Shown here: in pieces, positions 5,785 to 31,065 of the stretch
Layout of the letters: the number at the start of each line of letters is the position of its first letter
Position numbering within the stretch: position 1 is the first letter of the stretch
Assembly (NCBI GenBank): GCA_000503875.1
Contig: CP006913.1
Span: 240,001 to 272,000 of the forward strand
Direction of reading: 5' to 3'
Length of the DNA stretch: 32,000 nt
Origin: Candidatus Saccharimonadota bacterium
GTDB lineage: Bacteria; Patescibacteriota; Gracilibacteria; Absconditabacterales; Absconditicoccaceae
Program-made: the position numbers and the translations under genes
The notes under the pieces: generated by a model
Database searches by the model: none
What the model was told of the DNA's origin: nothing
What the model saw: only the letters and a program-made list of their open reading frames with translations

Positions 5785-7851
5785 ATGCATGTTCTAGAAG
5801 AAAAGAAAATATATCAAGATACAGAAAGGTATATTGATACCCAACAACATTTACGTGATGGTATTCAATTTTCTTTGGTAGTAGAATTTCAATCAGAAAA
5901 ATTTGTAGAATATCAAAAAGATTTGCTTCAAGAATTTGTGGCAGATTTTGTAGATGGAATCACAGACACTGAAGAGCATGATAATGATGCAGTGAGAGCA
6001 AAATGTGAAACAGCACTTCAGGAATTAAATACAAAACTCAAAGCTTTTGCAGATAAAGTTCGTGATATAGAATATTTTCCTATCAAAGGATATATGCAAA
6101 TTATTCTTGGGACTACACTTATTTCTTCTATGATAGGAAATGCAACGGTTATGATTTTAAGAGATCGTAAAATTTATTATACGTTAACAAACTCTACAAA
6201 AGTAAAAGGAAAAATAGATTTGTTTTCTGAATTTATTGAAGGAGATTTAGAAAGTGGCGATGAGGTTATCTATATAGGAACAAGAATAACAGATGTTTTG
6301 GATGCATATGATGTAAAAGATATCGAACAAATCCTTCAATCAGAAGAATGAAGTATTATTGGATTTATGGATGAAGTATTAACATCAAGAATAGAAAAAG
6401 AAAATTTGGGATTTTTGATGGGATATACAATTCAATGAATGACAAGGAAATCACATATGAGCAAAAAAATATCACTAGATAATTTAACATCTAAATTTTG
6501 ATTTATTCAAGAATGGAAAGAAAAGTTTTTCAAAAATAAATATCAAGTAACTGTTGGTATACTCAGTCTATTTATAGCATTTATGCTCTATAGCTTAGTT
6601 ACCCAATTGCTCAAAAAACCACAAGGAGAAATATATATAAATCCTCAAGGAGTTACCGTTGATCTTACTATAGATGATATCAAAAAAGATATCGTATTGT
6701 TCAAATCTATGGATCCAACAGGTGATGAAAAAGCAATGAAATACCAGGAAATAGTTAATAAAATTACTATTTTAGAAAAAAGAGGAAGATGGATAGAAGA
6801 TCTTCAACAATTACAAAAAATTCTCAAAGCTGATTATTATAAAGGATTCAATATCATAACAGTAAATAATCTTTCTCAATTTGACGATCCAGTATTGGGA
6901 AGAAAAACAACATTGATGTCGTTCAATACAAGTGAAAAGTCTACACTCTGAGAATTAAGCAAAATAGAATATGCAAAAGATATTCTTATCGCATGATCAA
7001 AAGCAGCGTTGTTAGGTGTGGTCAACGAAAATAGTAGGGGATCATTAGTAAGTTATAATATTGATGATACAATAGAAAATTGTAGTTTAAATCTTTTGAG
7101 AAATGGGTTCTATTGTTATACTACAAACGGTAAAATTTACGTAATAGCTAGATCAGGAATAGAGTCAGTTACTACTGCAGATCCAGATGGATTTCCTATG
7201 TCAATATGAGGTATTGGAACGTATGGAAAATCAAATATGTATGTTTTTGCCAAAAATGTTACTAATTTAGCAGATAGTACATTGGTAGTAAGATACCGCA
7301 ATACATTATGATCTCAATCAATATACCAACAAGGACAAAAATATATGATGACTCCAGATGTAGCTACATGATTAAATTTTGGATCAGGATTTTCAACATT
7401 CACTATTGATGTAAATTTTCTATGATGGTCTCAGTGAAAGCTATATCAATTTCGAAGAAATCCAGCAACATCATTTAATCTAGCTTATCGTGAAATTAAA
7501 TTGTTGGGTGGTGATACAAAAACTATGAAATTATCTGATGATGTAAAAATCGTTACACCTTCAAATTCAAGATATGTATATTTGTTTGATAGAGTTAACC
7601 AAACATTTATGGTATACGAATCTCGTCCACTCAAAACAAATGATCAATATGCAACAAGTTATAATCTTTATTATTTGTTTAGTTTCGCTTTTGATCTAGG
7701 AAATAATAAAGTAGTAGATGTTACTATTCCAGATGAATTGTGAAATAGACCAGAATTATATGTATTGACTCAAGCTGGTATCAATAAAATTCAACTTCAT
7801 GAATTTGTTGATAGTATCAAAAACAATAACGTATTGAAACAAGTTAATTAA
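5785..7851 (+). CDS. Hypothetical single-pass membrane protein (688 aa)
   Basis: ATG 5785. One frame joins ORFs 5743, 6583, 7009 and 7501 through about 13 TGA codons, ending at TAA 7849-7851. A central TM segment (VTVGILSLFIAFMLYSLVTQLL) separates a roughly 230-aa N-terminal domain from a roughly 440-aa C-terminal domain. The N-terminal region faintly resembles a degenerate PP2C/SpoIIE fold (weak). Confidence 0.7.
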
Positions 7852-7869
7852 TATATTGATTTCTTCAAG

Positions 7870-7897
7870 AAGAGTGTCTCCGGGCACTCTTTTTTTA
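7870..7897 (+). terminator. Rho-independent terminator
   Basis: aagagtg-tctccggg-cactctt followed by ttttttt. Confidence 0.8.
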
Positions 7898-7901
7898 TTG
7901 C

Positions 7902-7931
7902 TTGACTTGTAAAATCAATACAAATTATTAT
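7902..7931 (+). promoter_or_regulatory. Putative sigma70-like promoter of alaS
   Basis: TTGACT (7902-7907), a 17-18 nt spacer, then an A/T-rich -10 (TTATTA/TATTAT). Confidence 0.35.
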
Positions 7932-7983
7932 ATATACGCCAAGAAAAAATCAGACTCTTTTATTTTATGTGAATTATTTTTGT

Positions 7984-9564
7984 ATGAAAACAATATCTTC
8001 ACAAGAACTTAGAAATCTACGAAATACATTTTGGGAATCTAAACAACACAAATATCTTAGCGAAGTTTCTCTTATTGCGGATAAGGAAAGTACAGCGATG
8101 TTTAATGTGGCGGGGATGCAACAATTGATTCCATATCTTATGGGTAAACCTCATGATCTAGGAAAGAGAGTATTTAATATTCAAAGATGTATTAGAACTG
8201 TTGATATAGATGAAGTAGGGGATGCTTCGCACCTGACATTTTTTGAAATGATGGGAAATCGATCACTCGGAGATTATTTCAAAAAAGAAGCAGTAGAACG
8301 AAGCCGAGAGTTTTTGACGAGCAAAGATTATTTAGCGATAGATCCAAAAAAGCTTGCAGTAACCGTATTTCAAGGAGATGAACATACACCAAAAGATGAA
8401 GAGACAGCGTCATATTGGAAGAATGTAGGTATGACCGAAGATAAAATTTCATATTTACCAGCAAAACATAATCGATGGAGCCCAGGACCAGTTTGACCAT
8501 GTGGCCCAGATACAGAAATATTTTATCGAGTAGGTGCGGGAGATTTGCCCCCTGTAGGAAGCAATGTAGAAAACGATGAAGATAACTGGATGGAAATTTG
8601 GAATAATGTATTTATGGAATTTTATCGTGATGAATCAGGTACGCTTACCAAATTGAAACAACAAAACGTAGATACCGGAATGGGATTTGAAAGAATGTGT
8701 AAAACATTGCAAAACAAAGAAACAGTTTACGAAAGTGATTTGTTTCAACCAATTATTGATGCTATTGCGATTTATACAAAACTTGCTTACAAAGATTATC
8801 AAAGAAGAATGAGAATTGTGGCGGATCATCTTAGAACTGCAATAGTTCTTATCAATGATGGAGGTTTTCCATCCAATGTAGGAGCTGGATATGTACTTAG
8901 AATGATTATTAGAAGAATGTATTATAATTTGATTTTGCTCAACGATTCGGTTAGTGATGGCTATGAATCATTATTTGACGAAATTATTGCTTTTGTAGGA
9001 ACTCAACGCAAACTTACAAATTCTTCTGCGATTTTCAAAGTGATCAAAGATGAACTCGCTCAATTCAAAAAAACGATAGCAAACGGAAATAAATTATTGC
9101 AACAGATGATAGATAAACATCCAGCTCAACTAGCAGGTAAAGATATATTTATGCTCTACGATACCTATGGATTCCCTGTTGAGCTTACCAGAGAAATTGC
9201 CAGTGAAAAAGGAATCAAACTTGACGAAACCGGCTTCCAGAAATCACTAGAAGAAGCTCGCGAGAAATCTCGTCAATGAACCAAAGAGATGTTTAAGAAA
9301 GGAACTGATTGGTCAAAATATTTAGATGGAGTAAAACCAACCAAATTTATTGGTTATGATCAAACAAATTCAGAGTCTCAGAAACTTATCAAAGATTTTG
9401 AGGTAGACGGACAAAGAGTTTTAATCTTTGATCAAACGCCTTTCTATGCAGAATCCTGAGGTCAAACCTGAGACAAAGGAAAAATTATTTTAGATGATGG
9501 AACTGAAGTAGAAGTAATTGATGTAAAAAAATATGAAGGAGTGTTTTTGCACTTGGTGAAATAA
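7984..9564 (+). CDS. alaS: Alanine--tRNA ligase, C-terminally short form (526 aa; no editing or C-Ala domain)
   Basis: Motifs: FFEMMGN-W(CGA)-SLGDYFKK, AVE-CGA-S-W(CGA)-EFLT, HN-CGA-WSPGPV-G(TGA)-PCGPDTEIFY, VDTGMGFERM, ADHLR, TPFYAES-G(TGA)-GQT-G(TGA)-DKG. The frame ends at TAA 9562-9564, inside the beta-barrel that precedes the editing core, and is followed by a strong terminator. Confidence 0.9.
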
Positions 9565-9593
9565 TTTATTGAAAAGAATATATTTTAATCTAT

Positions 9594-9621
9594 AAGCCCG
9601 CTGTGAAGCGCGGCTTTTTTA
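9594..9621 (+). terminator. Rho-independent terminator after alaS
   Basis: aagcccgc-tgtgaa-gcgcggctt (G+C-rich stem, one bulge) followed by tttttt. Confidence 0.8.
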
Positions 9622-9734
9622 TTAAATAGTTTTATATTTAATACTAATTATATCATAAAATAATCACTTGTAAATAATATTTTTAAGGATATGATTAACT
9701 CATAACGACGTGTTCTTTTTAATAAATAACCAAT

Positions 9735-11678
9735 ATGATCATGAAATTCTTTTCTAAATTTTCAATTTTTGGCTTGTTGGTTGTTTTTACTTTCTTTAGT
9801 TTTAGATTTGTCTCGGCCGCAACGACCCCATCTTTTGGTATGGCTGCGAGTTATGGTGTCCTTTCAAGTACGTACACCAATACATCAGTAACAACCATTA
9901 ATGGAGACGTAGGATTTACTACTGCACCAGCGGTTGCTCCATTGGGTATACATCCAAATTATTGAGTAGCTGCTCCCTATCCTCAAGCAGGTATAGATCA
10001 AGCTACTGCTTTAGTAGCATTATCAGCGCCTGCTCAACCATGTACATTTACATTTCCAGCTGGGGCAATAAATCTTGCTACAGATGTTACTCACGGAACC
10101 ATTTGAATATATGAACCTGGTGTATATTGTAGTTTGGGTGCAATGACAGTTGGTTGACCAATTAATCTCGACGGTGCAGGAACATATATTTTCAGATCAT
10201 TTCCAGCCGCACTTAACACGACAGTAGGTTCAGTTATTTCATTGAGCAACGGTGCATCAGCTTGTGATGTTTTTTGGATTTCAACAAATACAACACTTGC
10301 TGCAACCACAACATTTGTAGGAACAGTTATAGATAATTCTTTTATCACTGTGGGTGCAAATACTACGTGGTTGGGAAGAGCTTTATCATTTGGTTGAACA
10401 GTTACTACAGATACAGACACCATTACTGTACCAAATTGTGCCCCAGCTACCTTACATATTGTCAAACAAGTAATAAACGATAATGGAGGACTAGCAATTG
10501 CAAACGCATTCAATCTTCATGTTAGACGTGCAGGAATTGATGTTGTGGGAAGTCCAGCATTGGGAGCTGGATTACCAGGAACTTCATATACATTAAATCC
10601 AGGAACCTATGTAATAAGTGAAGATGCAAATCCAGCTTATGCACAAAGTTTTGCATGAGATTGTAATATATGAGGAAGTATTACGCTTGCTCCAGGTGAT
10701 GATAGAACATGTACAGTAACTAATAATGATATAGCAACACCATCAGGTGGTGGAGGATGATGAGTAACATTTCCAATAGATACTTGTCCAAATTGAGATG
10801 ATTCGCCAAGTTACTATGATTGAATATGTGTTTTATCTCCAACGATAGTCCATTCTTGAGTTGTTGTTCCTTTAATTGGTATTACAAAAGTACCAAGTCC
10901 ATTAGCTTTACCAGCATGATCAGGTTCAGTTATTTACAATTATACTGTTTGGAATGTAGGAGGAAAAATAGCACTAACTAATATTACTTTAAAAGACGAT
11001 AAATGTACTTCAATAAAATTTATTTCAGGTGATACAAATAATAATAAAAAAATTGATATAAACGAAAAATGGAAATATACATGTACAACAAACCTTTTGA
11101 AAACTACTACAAATACAGCAATTGCAAAAGGATATAGCGATGATAGTTATAATCAAGTATCTGTTGCTACCGCAATCGCAACAGTTGTTGTTGGCGCAGA
11201 TTTACCAGCACCACTTATTGATATTGTAAAAATACCTAGTCGTTTAACTCCATTTCCATTTGGAGGGGGAGATGTTGATTATACATATATTGTAACGAAT
11301 CCAGGTATTGTTTATATAAGTGATGTTACGGTTACCGATAATAAATGTAATCCAGTTTCTATTATTTGAGGAGATAACAATCGTAATCATCTTCTTGATG
11401 TTGATGAAACATGGACATACACGTGCAAAACAAAAGTTTCTGTTTCAACAAGAAATATCGCTACAGCAAAGGGTATTGCAAATTGATTTGCGGCTGTAGA
11501 TTATGCTTTTGCTGACGTACTTGTTTTTGTTCCTGGATTTCCAAAAACATGAGCAACAATTTATCAAAATCATACATTTAGAAATATATTAATAGTGTTT
11601 GGTATTCTATTAATTTCGACAGGATTTATGGTGATATCTAAAAGACGTAATATTCAATCAAACGATTTATCAAAATAG
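9735..11678 (+). CDS. Sortase-anchored surface protein: DUF3494 (ice-binding-like) domain, prealbumin/Cna-B-like domain, 2x DUF11-type repeats, FPKTG sorting signal
   Basis: Signal peptide MIMKFFSKFSIFGLLVVFTFFSFRFVSA. AASYGVLSSTYTNTSVTTINGDVGFTTAP is the DUF3494 N-terminal signature. ATLHIVKQVINDNGG...PGTYVISE...CTVTNND is the prealbumin-like fold. The C-terminus is FPKT-G(TGA 11550-11552), then a hydrophobic stretch, then KRR. About 17 in-frame TGA codons; TAG at 11676-11678. Confidence 0.82.
10860..11525 (+). repeat. Two tandem DUF11-like domain repeats inside the adhesin (protein level)
   Basis: Repeat 1 is ITKVPSP..GSVIYNYTVWNVGG..LTNITLKDDKCTSIKFISGDTNNNKKIDINEKWKYTCTT. Repeat 2 is IVKIPSR..GDVDYTYIVTNPG..ISDVTVTDNKCNPVSIIGGDNNRNHLLDVDETWTYTCKT. 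Confidence 0.75.
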
Positions 11679-11685
11679 TAATACG

Positions 11686-12303
11686 ATGAAACAAAAAATC
11701 TGATCAAGATATATATTGTTTTTCTTTAGTACTATGGGGTTTTTCTTACTTTCAATAATAGTTTCTTTTTGGGATTTTGACAATGATGAAATACAAAATG
11801 AATCTAAAGAATTTCCAATAGTACAACAAATTCCAAAGGAAGTACCAGAAATTTTGGTAAGAAATCCAAATGAAATTCGTTTGGAAATTCCCAGTATCTA
11901 CGTTGATGCTGCTGTTATATCTGTTGGATTGACAAAAGATGGCATAATGGATTCTCCAAATAATGGAGATGATGTTTGATTATTTACATTAGGGAAACGT
12001 CCTGGTGAAAATTGAACCGCTGTTATAGCTGGGCATTATTGAATATGGAAAGATGGAACGATATCTGTTTTTCATGATATTAATACATTAAAAAAATGAG
12101 ATAAACTTCATATAGGAGACGGAAAATGATGAAGCGTATCTTTTGTTGTTCGTGAAAGTAAAATATATGACCCAAATGAAGGTGTTTCAGAAGTATTCTT
12201 ATCAAATGATGGGAAATCACACCTCAACCTTATTACTTGTATCTTAGATAAAAAAACAAAACAATATTCTAAGCGTTTAGTCGTATTTACTGACAAAATA
12301 TAA
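11686..12303 (+). CDS. Sortase (class E/F-like transpeptidase)
   Basis: N-terminal TM segment. Motifs: PGEN-G-TAVIAGH (catalytic His), HLNLITC (catalytic Cys), KRLVVF (Arg). Starts 8 nt after the FPKTG protein. Six or more in-frame TGA codons. Confidence 0.85.
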
Positions 12304-12304
12304 T

Positions 12305-12613
12305 CTATTTTGTTTCTTCCAAAATTATTCTTTTTGAGAATCCTCATCTTTTTTCATATTTTTCAATTCTGATTTTTTCTATTTCTTCTTTTGAAATTCA
12401 ATGAAAATCTCCTATTGCATAGACAACTTCCAAAATATCAGCTAGTTCTTCAGCCACATTGGTTCAAGAAAAGAGCTCTTTTCCTTCTTCATAAAATTTA
12501 TTTTCTAATCTTTGTTTATATTCCTGATCACCAGCAATATGAGTGATAGCTTGCTCTCAATTACTTTCAATAATTGCTGGAATATTGTCTCTAACGAGTT
12601 TATCGTGGTGCAT
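12305..12613 (-). CDS. MazG-like nucleoside triphosphate pyrophosphohydrolase (small KLVRD..IP family)
   Basis: Minus-strand frame MHHDKLVRDNIPAIIESN-G-EQ...EELADILEVVYAIGDFH-G-ISKEEIEKIRIEKYEKR-G-GFSKRIILEE. It matches the all-alpha NTP-PPase/MazG-like 'house-cleaning' family. Four TGA codons; stop TAG at 12305-12307. Confidence 0.75.
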
Positions 12614-12641
12614 AAGGGAAAAAATAAAGTAAAACAATCAA

Positions 12642-13835
12642 TTATTCTAAAGCTTTGAGTAAATCTTCTTTTTTATCATCTCGATTGTTTTCTAAAATTT
12701 TAGGGACTGGTATTTTATCTAATCATAAATCTTCTTCATAAAGATAATGTTTGAAATTTTCTGCATTTATACATCCAGTAATATTTTGTCGCATCCACAA
12801 TTCTTCACTTCATTGTCAAAATCAGATTTTTCCTTCTTCTTTTTGTCAAAATTCTTTAAACTGTTCTATGAGTTTATTTTGTGTGTCTTTTGATCGTCAT
12901 AATGCATTGCCTTTACTTTCTACTTGATGAGTAAAATTTTCTAAAGTAAGACTGTAAATTGAAATATGTTGTAAATATTCAGGACGAAAAATTTCTGGTA
13001 AATCAAAATTAAATTCAAATCCATAAAAAATATAAGGCAAAACCCATTCTATTATAGTAAAAGCTTTTTCTGTATCTAATTTTTTGATGTTTTTATTTAA
13101 GGCAGCTATTACTCAGTCTTGAAGTCTTTTTAAATCGATCTTACTAGATGTTGCACTATAAAAAGCAATCAGCATAGCTTCATTATTTCGATTCCAACCG
13201 CCAACTAAATCAGCAAGAATTGCGTCTATGTTAAGAGAGTTATCTTCATTAACATATTTTTTTGCAGATTCCTGATAATTGTTTTTAACTGTTTCTATAT
13301 ACTTACCTCGTTCTTGTTCTTCCCAAGTTAATCCTTTTTTACATACATTATTAATCGTTGTTATAATATTTGTTGTATCGATATTTACTTCTATGCTGTG
13401 AGCATTTTCTATTTCTTCAAGTAAAGATTTAAGCTCAATGTAGAAATCTTTTTCATATACTTCAGAATTTTTATTTCAAAGAAAGTACATCTCTTCAAAT
13501 TGTTTAATTAATTTAATTAAAGATGATTTAAGTATATATTTTAATTCTGATTTTGGTACTTCTGACAAAAAAGAAATAATTTCATCTATATATTTAAGAT
13601 AAGAAAATCTTTTATTGATTGTAGATAAACGTGAGAAAATGAATTTATCTAGATCAAAATTTCCATCATCATTGACTATATTATTTCGGTTAATTGCTTT
13701 TGGATAATGTGCTCTACATTTTTGATCAAATATCTTATTCCAATTTATTTGTCTTCCTAGTTTTCCATAAGGGAAAATTTCTTTTTGATCAAAAATAATT
13801 TCTTTTTTTTCTAAAGGTGAAGGAAAATTATTCAT
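12642..13835 (-). CDS. Hypothetical protein (397 aa), upstream of and co-oriented with the MazG-like gene
   Basis: Extends tracked ORF 13476..13835 through TGA codons to TAA at 12642-12644 with no TAA/TAG. Contains about 6 CGA codons. No recognisable domain, signal peptide or TM segment. Confidence 0.65.
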
Positions 13836-13837
13836 AA

Positions 13838-13869
13838 GAAAAAATGTTAAGAATAAATCAATATTCTTA
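13838..13869 (-). terminator. Putative terminator after the DUF333 gene
   Basis: 8-bp hairpin taagaata/tattctta (13848-13869). On the minus strand it is followed by TTTTTT, 3 nt before the ATG of the next gene. Confidence 0.45.
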
Positions 13870-13893
13870 TATATAAATATATAAAAAAGTCAA
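13866..13893 (-). promoter_or_regulatory. Putative promoter for the 397-aa gene
   Basis: Minus strand: TTGACT (13893-13888), 16 nt, TATAAG (13871-13866). Overlaps the terminator hairpin arm. Confidence 0.3.
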
Positions 13894-13912
13894 TAGATGT
13901 TATTGATAAAAA

Positions 13913-14389
13913 TTATTCAGCTTCTCCATTTCCTGCGCTTGGATTTGGATCGTAAGGATTTGGACATTCACCATCAAGATTTGCTTGTGCATTACAAAGT
14001 GTTCCATCAATTCTTTTACACATAGGGGTATCAGTTCCAACTCCTTCTACTTCACCACCAGTAATTGCACAATATATTTCTGCGTCATTTTCATATCCAG
14101 TAACTTTCATTCCTCCAATAGGACAATCCCCACGTAAGAAAGCCCATTCTTCACATTGACGATTATCTTCAAAAAGACAAACGCCATATTCGCCCTTTTT
14201 ATTTTTTCTTGTTTCTAGTATTCCTCATTTTTCAAGACAATTTGTTGAAGCTGGATTTGCTATACCAGTTTGTTCTTGTAGGGGTGTGTTTTTAATTTCG
14301 AAATTAAACCAATCGGTTTTTGTATTAACAAATTTTAAACTGGCTAATACAATAATGGTAATAATTACTGTCCAGAAAGTTTTTTTCAT
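13913..14389 (-). CDS. DUF333-domain (putative hemolysin-like) secreted or anchored protein
   Basis: MKKTFWTVIITIIVLASL signal/anchor. NPASTNCLEK-G(TGA)-GILETRKNKKGEYGVCLFEDNRQCEEWAFLRGDCP is the DUF333 signature. A Cys-rich acidic tail follows. Extends tracked ORF 13913..14110. Confidence 0.72.
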
Positions 14390-14414
14390 AAACATGTGTT
14401 TAGAAAATAAAGGA

Positions 14415-14735
14415 TTAGGTGCTCTTCTTCAGTATTTTTATTTTTCTTATTCCAAAAAACAATGATACTAAAATAATTATTTTTATTAGATAATGTCAGT
14501 GTATATCAACGATATCTTTCGTCATAGGAGTTATATTTCCTACGAGAAAATGTACGATAACTGCGATAGGTAATGTTAAAAAAACTCGATTTAATCTTGG
14601 AACAATAATTCTTATTTTTTTAAATAGTCTGGATAACAATGGAGCTAGCAAGTACATTCATCCAAAGGCAACAACAAGATCAAAAATAGCATATCCACCA
14701 ACGCGAAATTGTCTAAGAAATTCTATTACATTCAT
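14415..14735 (-). CDS. Small membrane protein (106 aa)
   Basis: MNVIEFLRQFRVGGYAIFDLVVAFG-G-MYLLAPLL... with three hydrophobic segments. Two TGA codons. Lies 25 nt upstream of the DUF333 gene start and is absent from the standard-code track. Confidence 0.55.
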
Positions 14736-14808
14736 ATGATATATTTCAAAGTAAATATATAACTCTTCTATAATCATCCCCAAAAGCAATACAAGAAATA
14801 TATTCAAA

Positions 14809-14837
14809 ATAAAAAAAACGCTCAAATAATGAGCGTT
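14809..14837 (-). terminator. Rho-independent terminator
   Basis: Perfect 8-bp hairpin aacgctca-aataa-tgagcgtt. On the minus strand it is followed by an 8-nt T run, downstream of CDS 14865..15434. Confidence 0.8.
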
Positions 14838-14864
14838 AAATATAATGAATGAGATCTATTTTAC

Positions 14865-15434
14865 CTAGTGTTGAATTTGGCTCCTACGTAGTATATAACC
14901 AATGAGAAGTCCAAATAAAATAAGTAAGGAATAGATAACGATAGGAACGATGCTAGGAAAATATTGACTAATAAATATCCCAGTAAATAAGGCAGAACCT
15001 ATAAATATTACATTATTGGTTTTTTTGTTTTTCTTTCTCCAGAATAATCCAAAGAGAAATGCAACAATATAACAGATAGGTGTTTCCCAAGCGGTTTTTG
15101 GTATACCAATAGGGATAGAAACACTATCTTCTTCTATTTTATCGTTTTTCTTTATAAGATAAAACGATGTAGCATATCCCTGTTTTTTAAATCCCCATTT
15201 GTCATAAGAATGATCAGAGCATTCCTTAAGTTGGCTACTACCTTTATTCCAGGCCTCTACAACATTTTTACCATTATGTTTGCTAAATAATTCTTCAGAT
15301 ATTTCTATTTTCTCGATTTTTTTAACTAAGAAAATACCTTCATCTGTTTTTAGCACACCAAATTCTTCTTTATCCTGTGCAAATAAAGTACAAGATAAGA
15401 TAAGCATAAAGCTAATTGTTAATAGTGTTTTCAT
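14865..15434 (-). CDS. Hypothetical membrane protein with signal peptide (possible lipoprotein)
   Basis: Intact ORF. MKTLLTISFMLILSC (lipobox-like ILSC), then a soluble domain of about 110 aa and 2-3 C-terminal TM segments. Confidence 0.7.
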   Translation of the reverse strand: MKTLLTISFMLILSCTLFAQDKEEFGVLKTDEGIFLVKKIEKIEISEELFSKHNGKNVVEAWNKGSSQLKECSDHSYDKWGFKKQGYATSFYLIKKNDKIEEDSVSIPIGIPKTAWETPICYIVAFLFGLFWRKKNKKTNNVIFIGSALFTGIFISQYFPSIVPIVIYSLLILFGLLIGYILRRSQIQH

Positions 15435-15542
15435 CTTTATATATATTTTGGTTATTTTTTTTGTTTTTATTAATATAATTTATTATATCAATTAAGACTT
15501 TAAAGTCAATATAATTACAAAAAATGCGATATAAAAATTCTC

Positions 15543-23576: not shown

Positions 23577-24653
23577 TTATTCTTTTGCCATGGTCTCTTG
23601 AAGAAGTCTAGTTTGATTTTCAAGGACCATTTTTTCCATAATATCATCAAGATCTCCTGTCAAGACAACAGGTATGTTTGACCAAGATTCGTGAATACGA
23701 TGATCAGTTATTCTATCTTGAGGAAAGTTATATGTTCTGATTTTTTCTGATCTATCTCCTGTTCCAATCTGGTTTCATCTCAATGTTTTTTCTTTTTCCA
23801 TTTTTTTATCTAATTCAATCTGATATAATCTGGATTTCAATACAGAAAACGCTTTTTCTTTATTTTGTAGTTGGGATTTGCTATCTCCAATATTTACAAT
23901 CAATCAACTTGGGTTATGATGAATTCTAACTCCTGTTTGATTCTTATTGGCATTTTGTCATCCAGCAGAAGAAGCTGCATATGTTTCCATTTGAATATCT
24001 TTTGGATCAATAACGATATCTACGTCTTCTGCTTCAGGCATAATAGCAACGGTTACGGTCGAAGTATGAACCCTTCCTTGTGATTCTGTAGCAGGAATTC
24101 TTTGAACTCTATGAACTCCACTTTCAAATTTCATAAGAGAGTAGACTTTATTACCAGAAATTTTTACAGTAACATCTTTAATTCATCAAATATCAGAAAG
24201 TTGTTCATCTACAATTTCTGTTTTCCAACCTTTTCTTGTTGCATATCAAAGGTACATTTTCAAAAGTTCTGTAGCGAAAAGTCCAGCTTCATCACCTCAA
24301 GCTGCAGGTCTAATTTCTAAATAAATATCTTTATCATCATTTGGATCCGTCGGCAAAAGAGCAATCTTGATACGTTTATCAAGGTCTTCAAGCTGAATTT
24401 CAGCGTTTTCTAATTCTTCTTGAGCCATAGCTAGCATATCTTCATCTGTCTCATTTGTAAGTATATCTTTGGCCTCAGTTACTTGGCCAGCATATTTTCT
24501 ATAAGAAACAGCAAGATCATATACTTCTTTCAGGTTTGAAAGTTCTTTGTTGATAGCAATATATGATTTCATGTCATTCATAGCAGCAGGATCCATAGCT
24601 TGTTCCTGTAGTTGAAGATATTTTTTTTCTATAGTTTGTAATTTATTTAACAT
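23577..24653 (-). CDS. prfA: Peptide chain release factor 1
   Basis: PAA-G(TGA)-[19 protein letters not shown] carries the PxT tripeptide of RF1, not the SPF of RF2. SSAG-G(TGA 23958-23960)-QNANK is the GGQ motif. [22 protein letters not shown] follows. Five in-frame TGA codons; TAA at 23577-23579. Confidence 0.95.
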
Positions 24654-24707
24654 GGTAATAAGTGAAAATTTAAAACATTGTTATTAACTAATAGATTTCT
24701 CTTTTTT

Positions 24708-27672: not shown

Positions 27673-27897
27673 TTACTTACTATAAGGTAAAAGTAATGAT
27701 GAAACGACAAAAACAATACCAGAAATAGTAGCTATTTTTTTTACTTTCCCTTCAAGGGATTTTTTGCTACCATATTCATTTCCACCAGCCATTCCTCCTA
27801 TTCCTAGTCCAATACCTCCTTTTGGAGACATTAAAAGAGCAGCTCCAATAAAAGCAATTCCTGAAAGAATCATAATAATAATTAACAACGTGCGCAT
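27673..27897 (-). CDS. secG: Preprotein translocase subunit SecG
   Basis: MRTLLIIIMILSGIAFIGAALLMSPKGGIGLGIGGMAGGN...KKIATISGIVFVVSSLLL: two TM segments flanking a Gly-rich loop, 74 aa. The start is taken at the internal ATG (27897) of the tracked ORF. Confidence 0.7.
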   Translation of the reverse strand: MRTLLIIIMILSGIAFIGAALLMSPKGGIGLGIGGMAGGNEYGSKKSLEGKVKKIATISGIVFVVSSLLLPYSK

Positions 27898-27910: not shown

Positions 27911-27950
27911 AAAAAATAAAAAAACGTATGCACTATAACATACGTTTTTT
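27911..27950 (-). terminator. Rho-independent (bidirectional-looking) terminator after the pilin-fusion gene
   Basis: 10-bp stem aaaacgtatg/catacgtttt with A/T runs on both sides. Confidence 0.75.
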
Positions 27951-27973
27951 CTAGGTAAAATCAATTGAAAATA

Positions 27974-30058
27974 TTAGTTGATAATCAAGAAGTTGGTAAC
28001 AATATATCCGGTTCCTATAACTATAATTCCAATGAAGATATATAATAAACTATTTTTGATTTTTTTCATAGCATCTGGACTATCTGGTTTGAGTAATAAT
28101 TGGAATGCTTGAACTAAAACCATAATGAGAATTACCAATGCAGCCAATCCCATTGCCCAGTTAATAATTTCATACAAGATAGGTAGATTTTTGTTTGCCA
28201 AAAGTCCAGATCCAATTTCTCATAGGTTACTAACTGCTTTTACTACGTCTTGCTGTTTTCCATAAATAAACTCAATAACTTGTTTTGCTCAAATAATAAT
28301 AAACATACCAAGTACATTCCAAGCAATAATAGTTCCTGCTTTTTTCTTGGCATCTTCATCAGTTCCAAAGACAAATGTTAATGCACGAGAGGCCAATAAA
28401 ACAAATAATACGCCAAGTGCTAAATAAATAGCCAATTTAATAAAAGGGAATGCAATTTTTTCATATATTTTTTGTGCTATTTCATATCATTGTAATTCTC
28501 CATAACCTATATTTCCAGTAAGAAAAATATCATTATAAAGTGTTGTTGAAATAAATTTTGCACTCATAATAACGATAATTCCCAATACTCAATAAACAAT
28601 ATAATTAGTACCTTCACTAATAGCTTTTTCATCACTAGAAAATAAAATTTTATAGAACCCCAAAAGAGAAATCAGAATTCCAATAGTTATAATAAGAGGA
28701 ACTAATACATCCATAATTTTTTTTAGTAAAAAATCTTTTACTGCATCTGCACCAGGTGTAGCACTTACATCACTTAAAATTTCTGGTGCATCAAGATTGT
28801 TTTTGATACTATCAATTGCTCTATTCATTGCGATATCAAATCTTTCTGCTTTGATGATAGCTACTGTTCATAATCGAGTGTTATTACTAACAACAGTTTC
28901 TTGATCTCGTTTCTTTAATTCACACGAAACTTTTTTGTCACCCAAAGATTGAGTAAATATATCTTTTAGAATTACAGTTTGTTTGAGTGATGTTCCAGGA
29001 TTAAGAGTAAATTGGACTAGTTTTTTAGATTGATAAATAACGAGTTTTTGTCCGTTATCCATATGCCAATAACAAGTTAATAATCCAGCGGGAACATTTG
29101 CTTTATTTACAAGATTAGTTCCTCGATTTTTTATAAGAACATCAAGGGATGGACTAGAATATTGTGCAAAACTAAGTAATCATCAAGGGAATTTTACTTC
29201 AAGTCTAAGGTCAACCCCAGTGACAAGTCATCAAGTAACCTTACATCCTAAATATTTAAACACATTTCGATTGCCAACAATTGCTCAATTATTACAAGAA
29301 AGTGTAGTAGAACTTTGAGCACAAGTTTTTGGAAACAATACTTCTTGTGCAGAATATGCAGTAATTCCAGAACCGTGAAGGATCGGAACACCTCCTATAT
29401 TACAATCAGCAGGAAGTCAGTCTAAACAAGTATCATATGGATATTGATTAAAATCACCAATAAATGTTCCATTGGTACAAGAAAACATAGATCATATGTT
29501 TACACATTTTTTTGGATAGATACTAGTCATAGTAGAATAATAAATTTTTGACCATCAATGAGGATAATCTGTATTATTTACTGTACATATTTTAAATCAA
29601 AGATCGGTACATCATTCATATATTGCATCTGGATTTCCTCATTCCCATATTCCATCTGTACAAGTTAGAATAACCTTTATTTGTTCACATGTTTGGGTAT
29701 TTGTTGACGTTGTAGATGTGTAACCAACCAAAGAATTTCTATTGGCTACAAATTGTTCTAGCCAAGGATGAATACATTCATTATCTCTTCTTTCGCGACA
29801 AGTTTCATAAGGATAATCATCGATATCATAACTATTTGGACTTATAAATTCTCAATTTTTACATTGAAAATTTGATAATGTTTCTATACATGTTTTATCA
29901 TATGTAGATACATCTATTTTATAAAATCCTGTATAATCCAAATGATTAACAAAATTTCATGAAGGGGTTTCACAAGGTTCTGTTTCTTGTGCAAATGTAA
30001 TAAAAGAAAATGTAGATAAGACTACGGTTAATAAAATGGAGTACATAAAGCGTTTCAT
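27974..30058 (-). CDS. Secreted Cys-rich ectodomain protein fused to three VirB2/TrbC (T4SS pilin)-like membrane hairpin modules
   Basis: ATG at 30058. Signal peptide MKRFMYSILLTVVLSTFSFITFA, four Cys-patterned repeats, an Ig/CARDB-like segment, then six TM helices arranged as three pilin-like hairpins. In frame with tracked ORFs 28868, 28589 and 27974. About 20 TGA codons; TAA at 27974-27976. Confidence 0.75.
27977..28730 (-). repeat. Three tandem pilin-like (TM-loop-TM) modules (protein level)
   Basis: IMDVLVPLIITIGILISLLGFYKILFSSDEKAISEGTNYIVYGVLGIIVIMSAKFI / IAFPFIKLAIYLALGVLFVLLASRALTFVFGTDEDAKKKAGTIIAWNVLGMFIIIGAKQVI / IINWAMGLAALVILIMVLVQAFQLLLKPDSPDAMKKIKNSLLYIFIGIIVIGTGYIV. Confidence 0.6.
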
Positions 30059-31065
30059 TATGATTTTTTTGAAGTAAAAGGTTTGATAATGGTAGTAATA
30101 AGAAGTACAAGTTCTCTCATTAATGGCAATGCAGGACTACGTCCCCATATCCAAAGCATAACACTATATCTTACCAAAACAAGAAGTACAGTAAGAATAG
30201 CTAGTCATGAAATATGTCAGAGGTCTACTTGCCAAAGAAGGATAATAATACAAATCAATAATAATCAATATTGTCGCTGAATGCTTCCAAATTTTTTGAT
30301 ATCATAGAGATATTGATATTCGTTTTTTATATTTTCAACTAAGAGTTTCCAATATGGACGATTGTAATTTCCGTGAAAAAGAAACACAATACTTCACCAT
30401 ACATATCACCAAATTTCTTCTGGATTTTTGTAAAATAAAGAAGAAACAAATTCTGATATAGATTTGGGTATAATATCGATATTTCCAAGTAAAGTTACTA
30501 TTCTTACGAGTATTACTATTCCTATAAATACAGCAAAAAATGGTGTTGGAGCAAGACATGATATACCAAATAAGATCCATAGAATAAGAGATTCTTTTAT
30601 TAAGATATCAGGTGTATCAAAACTATGTTTCATATATCGAAGATAAACAGAATATCCAGGTAAATATGCTAAAAAAGAATGTGCTTTATCAAGATTAGTA
30701 TATTCAGTGAATTCACTTTTGTTCGACAATGATGTTTTCTTTATTATTTTGATTTCTGTTATTGCTCAAATACATCCAATACCCAAAAGAGCAACCAAAA
30801 TACCAACAATAACTTGATAAATTATAGTAAGAATATCTATTGTATAAAAATAAGAAAACAGACCACTCAATAATGCTAATCCTACCAAAATAAGATTGAT
30901 CCATCCCAAAGAAATATATCCTTGAACAAAAAGACGATCTTGTTCGTTTAATTCGAGACTGTCTCCCTTAAGTAAATGGGTAATAAACGGAGAAAAAAAC
31001 ATCAAAGAAGCCAGACTTAATTGAATTTTTAATGATTGATTATTTGCTTTTTCCTCAATATTCAT
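30058..31065 (-). CDS. Polytopic membrane protein (335 aa), candidate VirB6/TrbL-type channel component
   Basis: Tracked ORFs 30766..31065 and 30406..30729 share one frame and are joined by a single TGA (30763-30765). The frame continues through 5 more TGA codons to TAA 30058-30060, which overlaps the next ATG (TAATG). There are 7-8 hydrophobic segments. Confidence 0.65.

Follow-up and report, generated by a model that had tools for sequence, protein, structure and literature searches.

A single-chain protein of three pilin-like hairpins with a Cys-rich ectodomain, encoded near virB4 in an Absconditabacteria-type genome

According to the main text of a recent survey (Quinonero-Coronel et al. 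2025, PMC12102498), a chromosomal type IV secretion system (T4SS) is present in most Patescibacteria; it derives from the MPF_FATA type of monoderms and usually lacks a relaxase. The same main text reports VirB2-like pilins (PF04956, PF18895) near virB4 in 1,135 assemblies, as well as 441 arrays of 2-11 separate pilin genes in Patescibacteria; for the class Gracilibacteria it reports no VirB6 and only rarely a link between VirB3/TrsD and virB4, and it states that Gram-positive-type T4SSs were long believed to lack pili. The T4SS cluster of Southlakia contains a series of essential pilin genes and neither a coupling protein nor a relaxase (Wang et al. 2023, PMC10633639). PrgF, from a Gram-positive system, is a VirB2-like pilin and essential; it was modelled on a pentamer of the VirB6-like PrgH, and the conjugative pili solved so far all have a lumen lined by the charged loop, with both termini outside (ter Beek et al. 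2025, bioRxiv 10.64898/2025.12.18.695078). Here we describe a 32,000-nucleotide stretch of DNA (the window; assembly GCA_000503875.1, contig CP006913.1, positions 240,001 to 272,000), in which one gene, for a protein of 694 amino acids (aa), accounts for the sole pilin homolog seen in a T4SS-like cassette of three chromosomal genes.

Like the VirB2-like pilins of other Patescibacteria (PMC12102498; PMC10633639), this protein belongs with PF18895 and is encoded beside a chromosomal VirB4 of the Patescibacteria type; like the published arrays, the system has several divergent pilin units and no relaxase or coupling protein nearby. The arrays consist of 2-11 separate genes for small pilins, whereas here three units are joined in one chain in a fixed order, and the locus's only pilin gene also encodes an ectodomain of 400 aa. 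Separate-gene pilin arrays are known from Patescibacteria, and what appears new is the fusion of units within one polypeptide and their fusion to an ectodomain. An earlier note on this DNA, made from the sequence, had held that no equivalent was described, which is correct only in part: PF18895, an NCBI record named 'pilin' and the published arrays exist, but a fusion within one polypeptide or with an ectodomain was not found in the searchable papers. In the main text of PMC12102498 we found no passage on several pilin units per protein or on a pilin-ectodomain fusion; within the limited coverage of our literature search on PF18895/T4SS_pilin, no paper on a fused form was found, and the Vampirococcus genome paper did not mention a T4SS.

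With VirB2, TraA and TrbC (PF04956) and with PrgF, the modules share a helix pair with a short charged loop, a Sec-type leader and dependence on a VirB4 machine, and their termini would be expected outside and their loops inside. Those pilins are single hairpins of 50-150 aa; in the present locus no cyclisation or processing enzyme was seen. The archaeal Ced import system (CedB ATPase, polytopic CedA and the two-helix pilins CedA1/CedA2; Beltran et al. 2023, PMC9905601) has a comparable minimal three-part composition, is chromosomal without relaxase or coupling protein, and offers a plausible import role. However, the likeness is one of layout only and does not imply DNA import. The ATPase of the present cassette falls with VirB4 models from Firmicutes (CD1110) and mycoplasmas and matches CedB weakly, and the pilin units are fused and bear an ectodomain. 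In the mycoplasma integrative and conjugative elements, the pilin-like Mbov_0395 (NF045849) and the VirB4 Mbov_0397 have models that match module 3 and the VirB4 fragment, respectively, although the former are single units of ~80 aa on mobile elements and the scores here are below the cut-off. Type IV pilus minor pilins with C-terminal lectin-like domains are adhesin-bearing pilus subunits. The present protein can be compared with them by functional analogy only, as a polymerising, membrane-extracted subunit with a variable binding domain; fold and machinery are unrelated, and the adhesin there is on a rare tip subunit rather than on the apparent sole pilin.

Genetic code and the three pilin-like hairpins

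Translation with table 11 yielded only short open reading frames (ORFs) of 64-79 aa in the target region. With code 25, in which UGA is read as Gly, the residue total in ORFs of at least 100 aa rose from 6,389 to 15,527 across the window, and the target region became a single 694-aa ORF with 18 in-frame TGA codons. A codon alignment with seven orthologs showed TGA 57 times, GGN 39 times and TGG not once at these 18 sites. Because orthologs have TGA or GGN but never TGG there, UGA stands for Gly and not Trp, and on this sequence evidence the whole window (1-32000) is on genetic code 25. An RF-1 gene is located at window 23577-24680 on the minus strand.

Public gene calls in this protein family were frequently wrong (P0001, P0147, P0148, P0141, P0216 and P0225). 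For instance, the database copy of the window protein, P0001, carries Trp at all 18 UGA sites, a translation artefact. Two apparent single-module proteins, P0147 and P0148, look like fragments of triple pilins, suspected to come from genes split at UGA by gene calling with the wrong code, and were not used as stand-alone forms. Some homologs are publicly labelled 'NADH:ubiquinone oxidoreductase subunit 6' or 'MnhB'. As a lesson for annotation, the wrong code in public calls either turns UGA into Trp or leaves the gene in fragments.

Hydropathy of the 694-aa protein revealed a signal-like segment at the N-terminus and, beyond it, six hydrophobic segments and no more. The earlier note had placed three tandem pilin-like hairpins at the C-terminus (window 27977-28730, equivalent to aa 443-694), and this was borne out well above chance level: the six helices fall into three modules, the T4SS_pilin profile PF18895 matched the whole protein with 48.4 bits (E=1e-12; gathering cut-off, 26.6 bits), and module profiles built from 24 orthologs aligned in register with hhalign (E=5.8e-6 for modules 1 and 2, 1.2e-3 for modules 1 and 3, and 4.9e-3 for modules 2 and 3). 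When scored alone, module 1 (28.4 bits) and module 3 (37.2 bits) passed the PF18895 cut-off, while module 2 (13.3 bits) fell below it; its internal homology to module 1 indicates that module 2, too, is a pilin hairpin. Thirty-five module sequences gave a nearly gap-free alignment, and the NCBIfam model NF045849 (Mbov_0395 pilin-like) aligned with module 3 end to end (model positions 6-77 of 80). Among 31 diverse core orthologs, PF18895 matched 30, TrbC/VirB2 12 (E<0.01, best 1.6e-6) and Oxidored_q3 one (E=0.005), and no other family recurred. AlphaFold2 (AF2), for which the input was the P0001 copy with Trp at the 18 UGA sites, predicted six long helices, joined in pairs by turns of 3-4 residues. 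The loop motif that had been proposed for all three hairpins, [S/T/P]-D-x-[D/E]-x-x-K-K, is exact in module 2 and only loosely followed in modules 1 and 3.

Judged by its profile matches, the protein truly belongs to the pilin family PF18895, and it has the paired transmembrane helices, short charged loop and secretion leader (the last read from sequence) of a VirB2-type pilin, and its gene is two genes from that of the VirB4 ATPase. It is not small and stand-alone (~50-150 aa) as VirB2-type pilins are, having 694 aa, three hairpins and a 400-aa ectodomain. The departure from that format is twofold: its three units are differentiated and fused, and it bears an ectodomain that is large and evolves fast.

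Conservation of the core, the ectodomain and the cassette

A first homolog search returned 25 homologs of 433-1,068 aa with 97% to 30% identity, one of them named 'pilin [Candidatus Absconditabacteria]' by NCBI, and all those inspected end in the same three modules. A hairpin profile searched against 1.84 billion representative proteins gave 5,776 matches at E<=1e-3. When modules were recounted on 173 collected proteins, 124 had exactly three, and in nearly all the chain ends 0-2 residues past module 3. About 75 of these 124 have an N-terminal part of only 37-110 aa, ~310 aa in total and no ectodomain, while ~50 carry 160-1,059 extra residues; the ectodomain reaches ~770 aa in sampled genomes and ~1,060 aa in metagenomic proteins. 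Because the core occurs without an ectodomain in so many proteins, it has a function of its own, and the conserved unit is the three-hairpin core and not the ectodomain. The window protein belongs to a widespread but undescribed sub-family.

Selection on the two parts differed. The ratio of nonsynonymous to synonymous substitution rates (dN/dS), calculated for the window gene against its four closest orthologs, was 0.07-0.09 for the pilin core, 0.13-0.26 for the immunoglobulin (Ig)-like domain and 0.25-0.34 for the Cys repeats, which evolve 3-4 times faster than the pilin core. Module 3 was generally the most constrained module (0.02-0.06). The core is under strong purifying selection, and the ectodomain under weaker selection. 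Orthologous modules share about 55-95% identity and paralogous modules about 20%, and the linkers between modules are conserved among orthologs as much as the helices are. Since the modules are closer to their orthologs than to their neighbours, the triplication is old and the three positions are not interchangeable.

The N-terminal part fits the earlier description of a secreted protein with a Cys-rich extracytoplasmic portion. Residues 1-23 look like a Sec leader, and all 18 cysteines, an even number, are in the N-terminal part, which AF2 modelled as all-beta with a predicted local distance difference test score (pLDDT) of about 80-88. The Cys repeats and the rest of the ectodomain had no Pfam match and no sequence relative in the PDB. 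When the full model was compared with the PDB using Foldseek, only the beta-sandwich was matched (GH3 beta-glucosidase chains, a macroglobulin domain and NPC2; E 4e-5 to 1e-3). Directly before module 1 is a short helix in which R406, F407, D408, A410 and N421 are invariant in a 24-sequence alignment; the ~310-aa relatives have a related RFD-type helix soon after their N-terminal signal-like segment. Orthologs have 0-35 cysteines, as their complement of Cys-rich repeat units differs widely, and the Cys-repeat version found in the window is typical of the sampled Absconditabacteria/SR1-type genomes.

A scan of one genome per species yielded 34 loci, labelled Absconditabacteria, SR1, 'Peribacteria' or Gracilibacteria, which were re-annotated with code 25. 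In nearly all of those whose length allows it to be seen, the architecture again stands near virB4: VirB4 comes first, then the counterpart of the 335-aa protein in the window, then the triple pilin (312-1,027 aa), in some loci SecG, and lastly an SBP_bac_5 protein; the same cassette was found in loci L001-L004. The flanking genes are housekeeping genes (RF-1, M50 peptidase and EF-G). VirB4 of the cassette has about 680-710 aa in relatives, and 750 in L039. No other pilin ORF was found in the window or in any related locus, and the core had no tblastn match among the PLSDB plasmids. Neither a coupling protein (VirD4) nor a relaxase was found, by Pfam labels, in the window or within 8-10 kb of the gene in L001-L004.

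The 335-aa gene, which encodes a polytopic membrane protein, precedes the pilin gene, and its stop overlaps the pilin start codon (TAATG). The protein had no match in Pfam, NCBIfam or the PDB, and a profile search with it retrieved only 33 homologs, none of them annotated or with a Pfam domain; nearly every related locus has a member of this family between its virB4 and pilin genes. From this position we consider it a candidate VirB6-type platform, and it may be the VirB6-type component reported absent in Gracilibacteria. For the VirB4 fragment, the best NCBIfam match was the Firmicutes CD1110 VirB4-like model (E=1e-47), followed by TraC and then mycoplasma VirB4, while the CedB model NF041017 scored 30.5 bits against a cut-off of 700, which places the fragment outside CedB. 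Downstream, a terminator-like hairpin suggests that the pilin gene is the end of the virB4 operon.

The most distant relatives (L035, L037, L038 and L039) encode pilins of 312-426 aa whose ectodomain is small or absent. In these loci the neighbour corresponding to the 335-aa protein is shortened to 128-153 aa or was undetected; in L039 the pilin gene directly follows virB4.

Possible states of the triple pilin

We tentatively favor, at a little under an even chance, the reading that the protein is an uncleaved, single-chain, pseudo-trimeric pilin, which VirB4 and the neighbouring membrane protein extract into a pilus or short conduit that displays a variable adhesin. An N-out orientation following the signal peptide would put the three charged loops in the cytoplasm and leave the ectodomain, both ~30-aa linkers (aa 506-537 and 597-628) and the C-terminus outside, as each hairpin would require in order to act as a VirB2-type pilin. 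Because both termini are on the outer face in VirB2-type pili, an uncleaved chain of three modules would be topologically compatible with a pilus lattice; the modules could, for example, be successive subunits along one helical strand, without a clash with a five-fold base. VirB4 and the 335-aa protein, as a VirB6-like platform, would extract the triple pilin from the membrane into the pilus or short conduit. The repeating unit of this structure would be a pseudo-trimer, and the variable ectodomain on its outside would bind host or prey as an adhesin. Since no coupling protein or relaxase is nearby, the substrate is probably not a conjugative plasmid, and the apparatus likely serves import or export at contact with the host cell. 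The stop/start overlap with the upstream gene and the terminator-like hairpin after the pilin gene support this reading. So do the pilin homology of the modules, the cassette shared by many species, the lack of any other pilin ORF in these loci, the many core-only proteins, the faster evolution and variable repeats of the ectodomain, the even number of cysteines, the longer module chains and pilin-PKD fusion of other candidate-phyla bacteria, and the published work on pilins near virB4, in Southlakia and in PrgF.

Several observations weigh against it. Filament formation and the uncleaved state of the chain are what we infer, and packing could suffer if every third subunit bears a bulky domain of 400 aa. 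What connects the modules to VirB2 are profiles from Pfam and NCBIfam, of which PF04956 (TrbC/VirB2) gave 18.5 bits for the whole protein (E=0.0024) and 21.4 bits for the core, below its cut-off of 27.9, and NF045849 gave 24.1 bits for module 3 (E=2.2e-5), below its cut-off of 40. The AF2 models of the hairpins were of moderate confidence (pLDDT 60-85, and about 60-66 in the full-length model; predicted template modelling scores of 0.29 and 0.47). With Foldseek, the core model found no T4SS pilin in the PDB, the best match having E=0.44 and all being generic helical bundles; the profile of 35 modules likewise found designed helical proteins only, and no solved pilin, among PDB sequences. No similarity between the 335-aa protein and VirB6 was detectable with Pfam, NCBIfam, the PDB or the profile search. 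The module profile had no significant hhalign match to an Agrobacterium tumefaciens VirB2 sequence, a comparison that is uninformative.

A less likely alternative is that the six helices remain in the membrane, as a channel part of the T4SS or an anchor for the ectodomain, in which case the protein would be an adhesin bound to the membrane, or a subunit of the channel, and not a polymerising pilin. The hydrophobicity of all six helices and the moderate AF2 confidence for a packed core would be in keeping with such a static component, as would three differentiated, non-equivalent modules and an ectodomain that may be hard to fit on a filament; Gram-positive-type T4SSs, moreover, were long believed to be without pili, as the main text of PMC12102498 recounts. 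The earlier note had suggested a membrane-embedded base that displays the Cys-rich domain, but the core is not primarily such a base, as it very often occurs without the ectodomain, in ~310-aa proteins, and anchoring is thus not its main purpose. Homology was seen with pilins but with no family of channels or transporters; in addition, pilins are essential in the sole tested Patescibacteria T4SS (PMC10633639), and the Gram-positive homolog PrgF behaves as a pilus former (bioRxiv 10.64898/2025.12.18.695078).

Canonical pilins such as TraA, VirB2 and TrbC are proteolytically matured. That maturation invites a further alternative, also raised in the earlier note, which we think less probable still: the chain may be a polyprotein that is cut after insertion, for instance by signal peptidase near SAK/GAK at the outer ends of helices 2 and 4, to give three distinct pilins in 1:1:1 amounts and an ectodomain that is either free or linked to module 1. 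Modules 1 and 2 do share conserved small-residue-then-Lys motifs (IMSAKF, IIGAKQ) at matching positions, and for other Patescibacteria the main text of PMC12102498 describes arrays in which 2-11 pilin genes are separate and divergent. Yet the SAK/GAK residues are inside predicted helices and not after them, the linkers equal the helices in conservation and are in part predicted to be helical, the cassette has no dedicated protease gene, and the order and length of the fusion are invariant over more than 120 clusters; the differentiation of the three modules, each conserved with its own ortholog, weighs modestly against cleavage as well.

Finally, that the gene is an assembly chimera, a stop-broken pseudogene or a six-helix transporter that is pilin-like by composition only is effectively refuted: table 11 does fragment the gene, some homologs bear the oxidoreductase and MnhB labels, and hydrophobic helices can give spurious profile matches, but code 25 is backed by TGA/GGN covariation and by long ORFs across the window, dN/dS is 0.07-0.34, PF18895 and Oxidored_q3 differ as given above, profile and fold searches matched no transporter or permease family, and an architecture kept from 97% to 30% identity and, with the same synteny, in 34 species genomes cannot be a chimera.

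If the protein is a single-chain pseudo-heterotrimer, pilin, adhesin and fixed subunit stoichiometry are merged in one polypeptide, and a pilin 'array' is frozen as one chain whose order and 1:1:1 proportions are fixed, which suggests that in other classes of the candidate phyla radiation (CPR) arrays of several pilin genes may likewise encode heteromeric filaments and not alternative variants. We also consider a broader proposal, which we regard as somewhat doubtful, that the T4SS filament of Absconditabacteria/Gracilibacteria-type CPR bacteria is built from a single-chain pseudo-heterotrimeric pilin and coated by its hypervariable Cys-rich N-terminal domain, which sets host/prey specificity; together with VirB4 and one orphan membrane protein, the pilin would make up a minimal T4SS of three genes. 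Patescibacteria are host-dependent, and in one genetically tested species the T4SS is essential; a fast-evolving ectodomain of variable copy number is a candidate host-recognition determinant for predatory or epibiotic SR1-type bacteria, and the visible three-gene cassette is a very simple system in which to consider pilus assembly by a monoderm T4SS. The natural tolerance of N-terminal fusions of 300-1,000 aa is of interest for pilus display scaffolds.

Feature coordinates and related loci

Table 1. Location of the triple-pilin gene, its parts and neighbouring features in the window
Feature	Window position	Strand	Description and basis
Complete coding sequence of the triple-pilin/ectodomain protein	27974..30058	-	Code 25, 694 aa + stop; dN/dS <1 along entire length
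Signal-peptide-like N-terminus, aa 1-23	29990..30058	-	MKRFMYSILLTVVLSTFSFITFA then QETEP; hydrophobic segment; read from sequence
Four beta-rich ~55-aa repeats, four Cys each, aa 29-272	29243..29974	-	16 Cys positions; AF2 strands
Ig-like beta-sandwich, aa ~278-402	28853..29227	-	2 Cys; AF2 strands; Foldseek
'RFD' helix, aa ~404-421	28796..28849	-	Directly before module 1; 24-sequence alignment; AF2 helix
Pilin module 1, aa 436-518	28505..28753	-	Helix, loop SSDEKAISEGTN, helix; hydropathy, PF18895, hhalign
Pilin module 2, aa 522-606	28241..28495	-	Helix, loop GTDEDAKKKAGT, helix; hhalign to module 1
Pilin module 3, aa 610-694	27977..28231	-	Helix, loop KPDSPDAMKKIKN, helix; last part of protein
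Terminator-like hairpin	27918..27951	-	14-bp stem + T run; consensus match; after pilin stop, before SecG gene
SecG gene	27673-27897		On the far side of the terminator-like hairpin from the pilin stop
335-aa polytopic membrane protein, orphan family	30058..31065	-	~six hydrophobic helices; upstream of pilin gene
VirB4-type ATPase, C-terminal 299 codons	31101..32000	-	Cut by window end; PF19044 P-loop_TraG E=1e-15

The hairpin profile also found longer chains, of 4-8 modules by recount and with up to 9 matched stretches in the search listing; several of these multi-module chains consist of near-identical repeats. In a Peregrinibacteria metagenome-assembled genome (MAG), a 7-module protein (L040, 8001-9926) is encoded beside a PKD-repeat protein, with a VirD4-like gene close by. 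At L041 (8001-12379), the genes after that of an 8-module protein with 9 matched stretches encode a 155-aa pilin, then a protein of 383 aa, then a large PKD protein; the 383-aa protein matches both pilin and PKD models and is likely a pilin-PKD fusion, as judged from those matches. Given the multi-module chains and the pilin-PKD locus, the joining of pilin units and the attachment of Ig-type domains to pilins are recurrent in candidate-phyla bacteria.

Elsewhere in the window (9726-12303, plus strand), a gene for a 647-aa surface protein is followed by a sortase gene at 11614-12303. The surface protein has Ice_binding-like, SpaA_2 and DUF7507 domains and ends in an FPKTG motif, a hydrophobic helix and a KRR tail, so that the two look like a sortase-substrate pair.

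One relative departs from the otherwise invariant ending of the family. In P0015, from an Absconditabacteria MAG (L009, 6156-8861), the last ~25 residues of module 3 are wholly divergent (ending in KKSREAFCIFLLVFLLLELDILLPTS), which suggests a frameshift or an assembly error near the 3' end of the gene.

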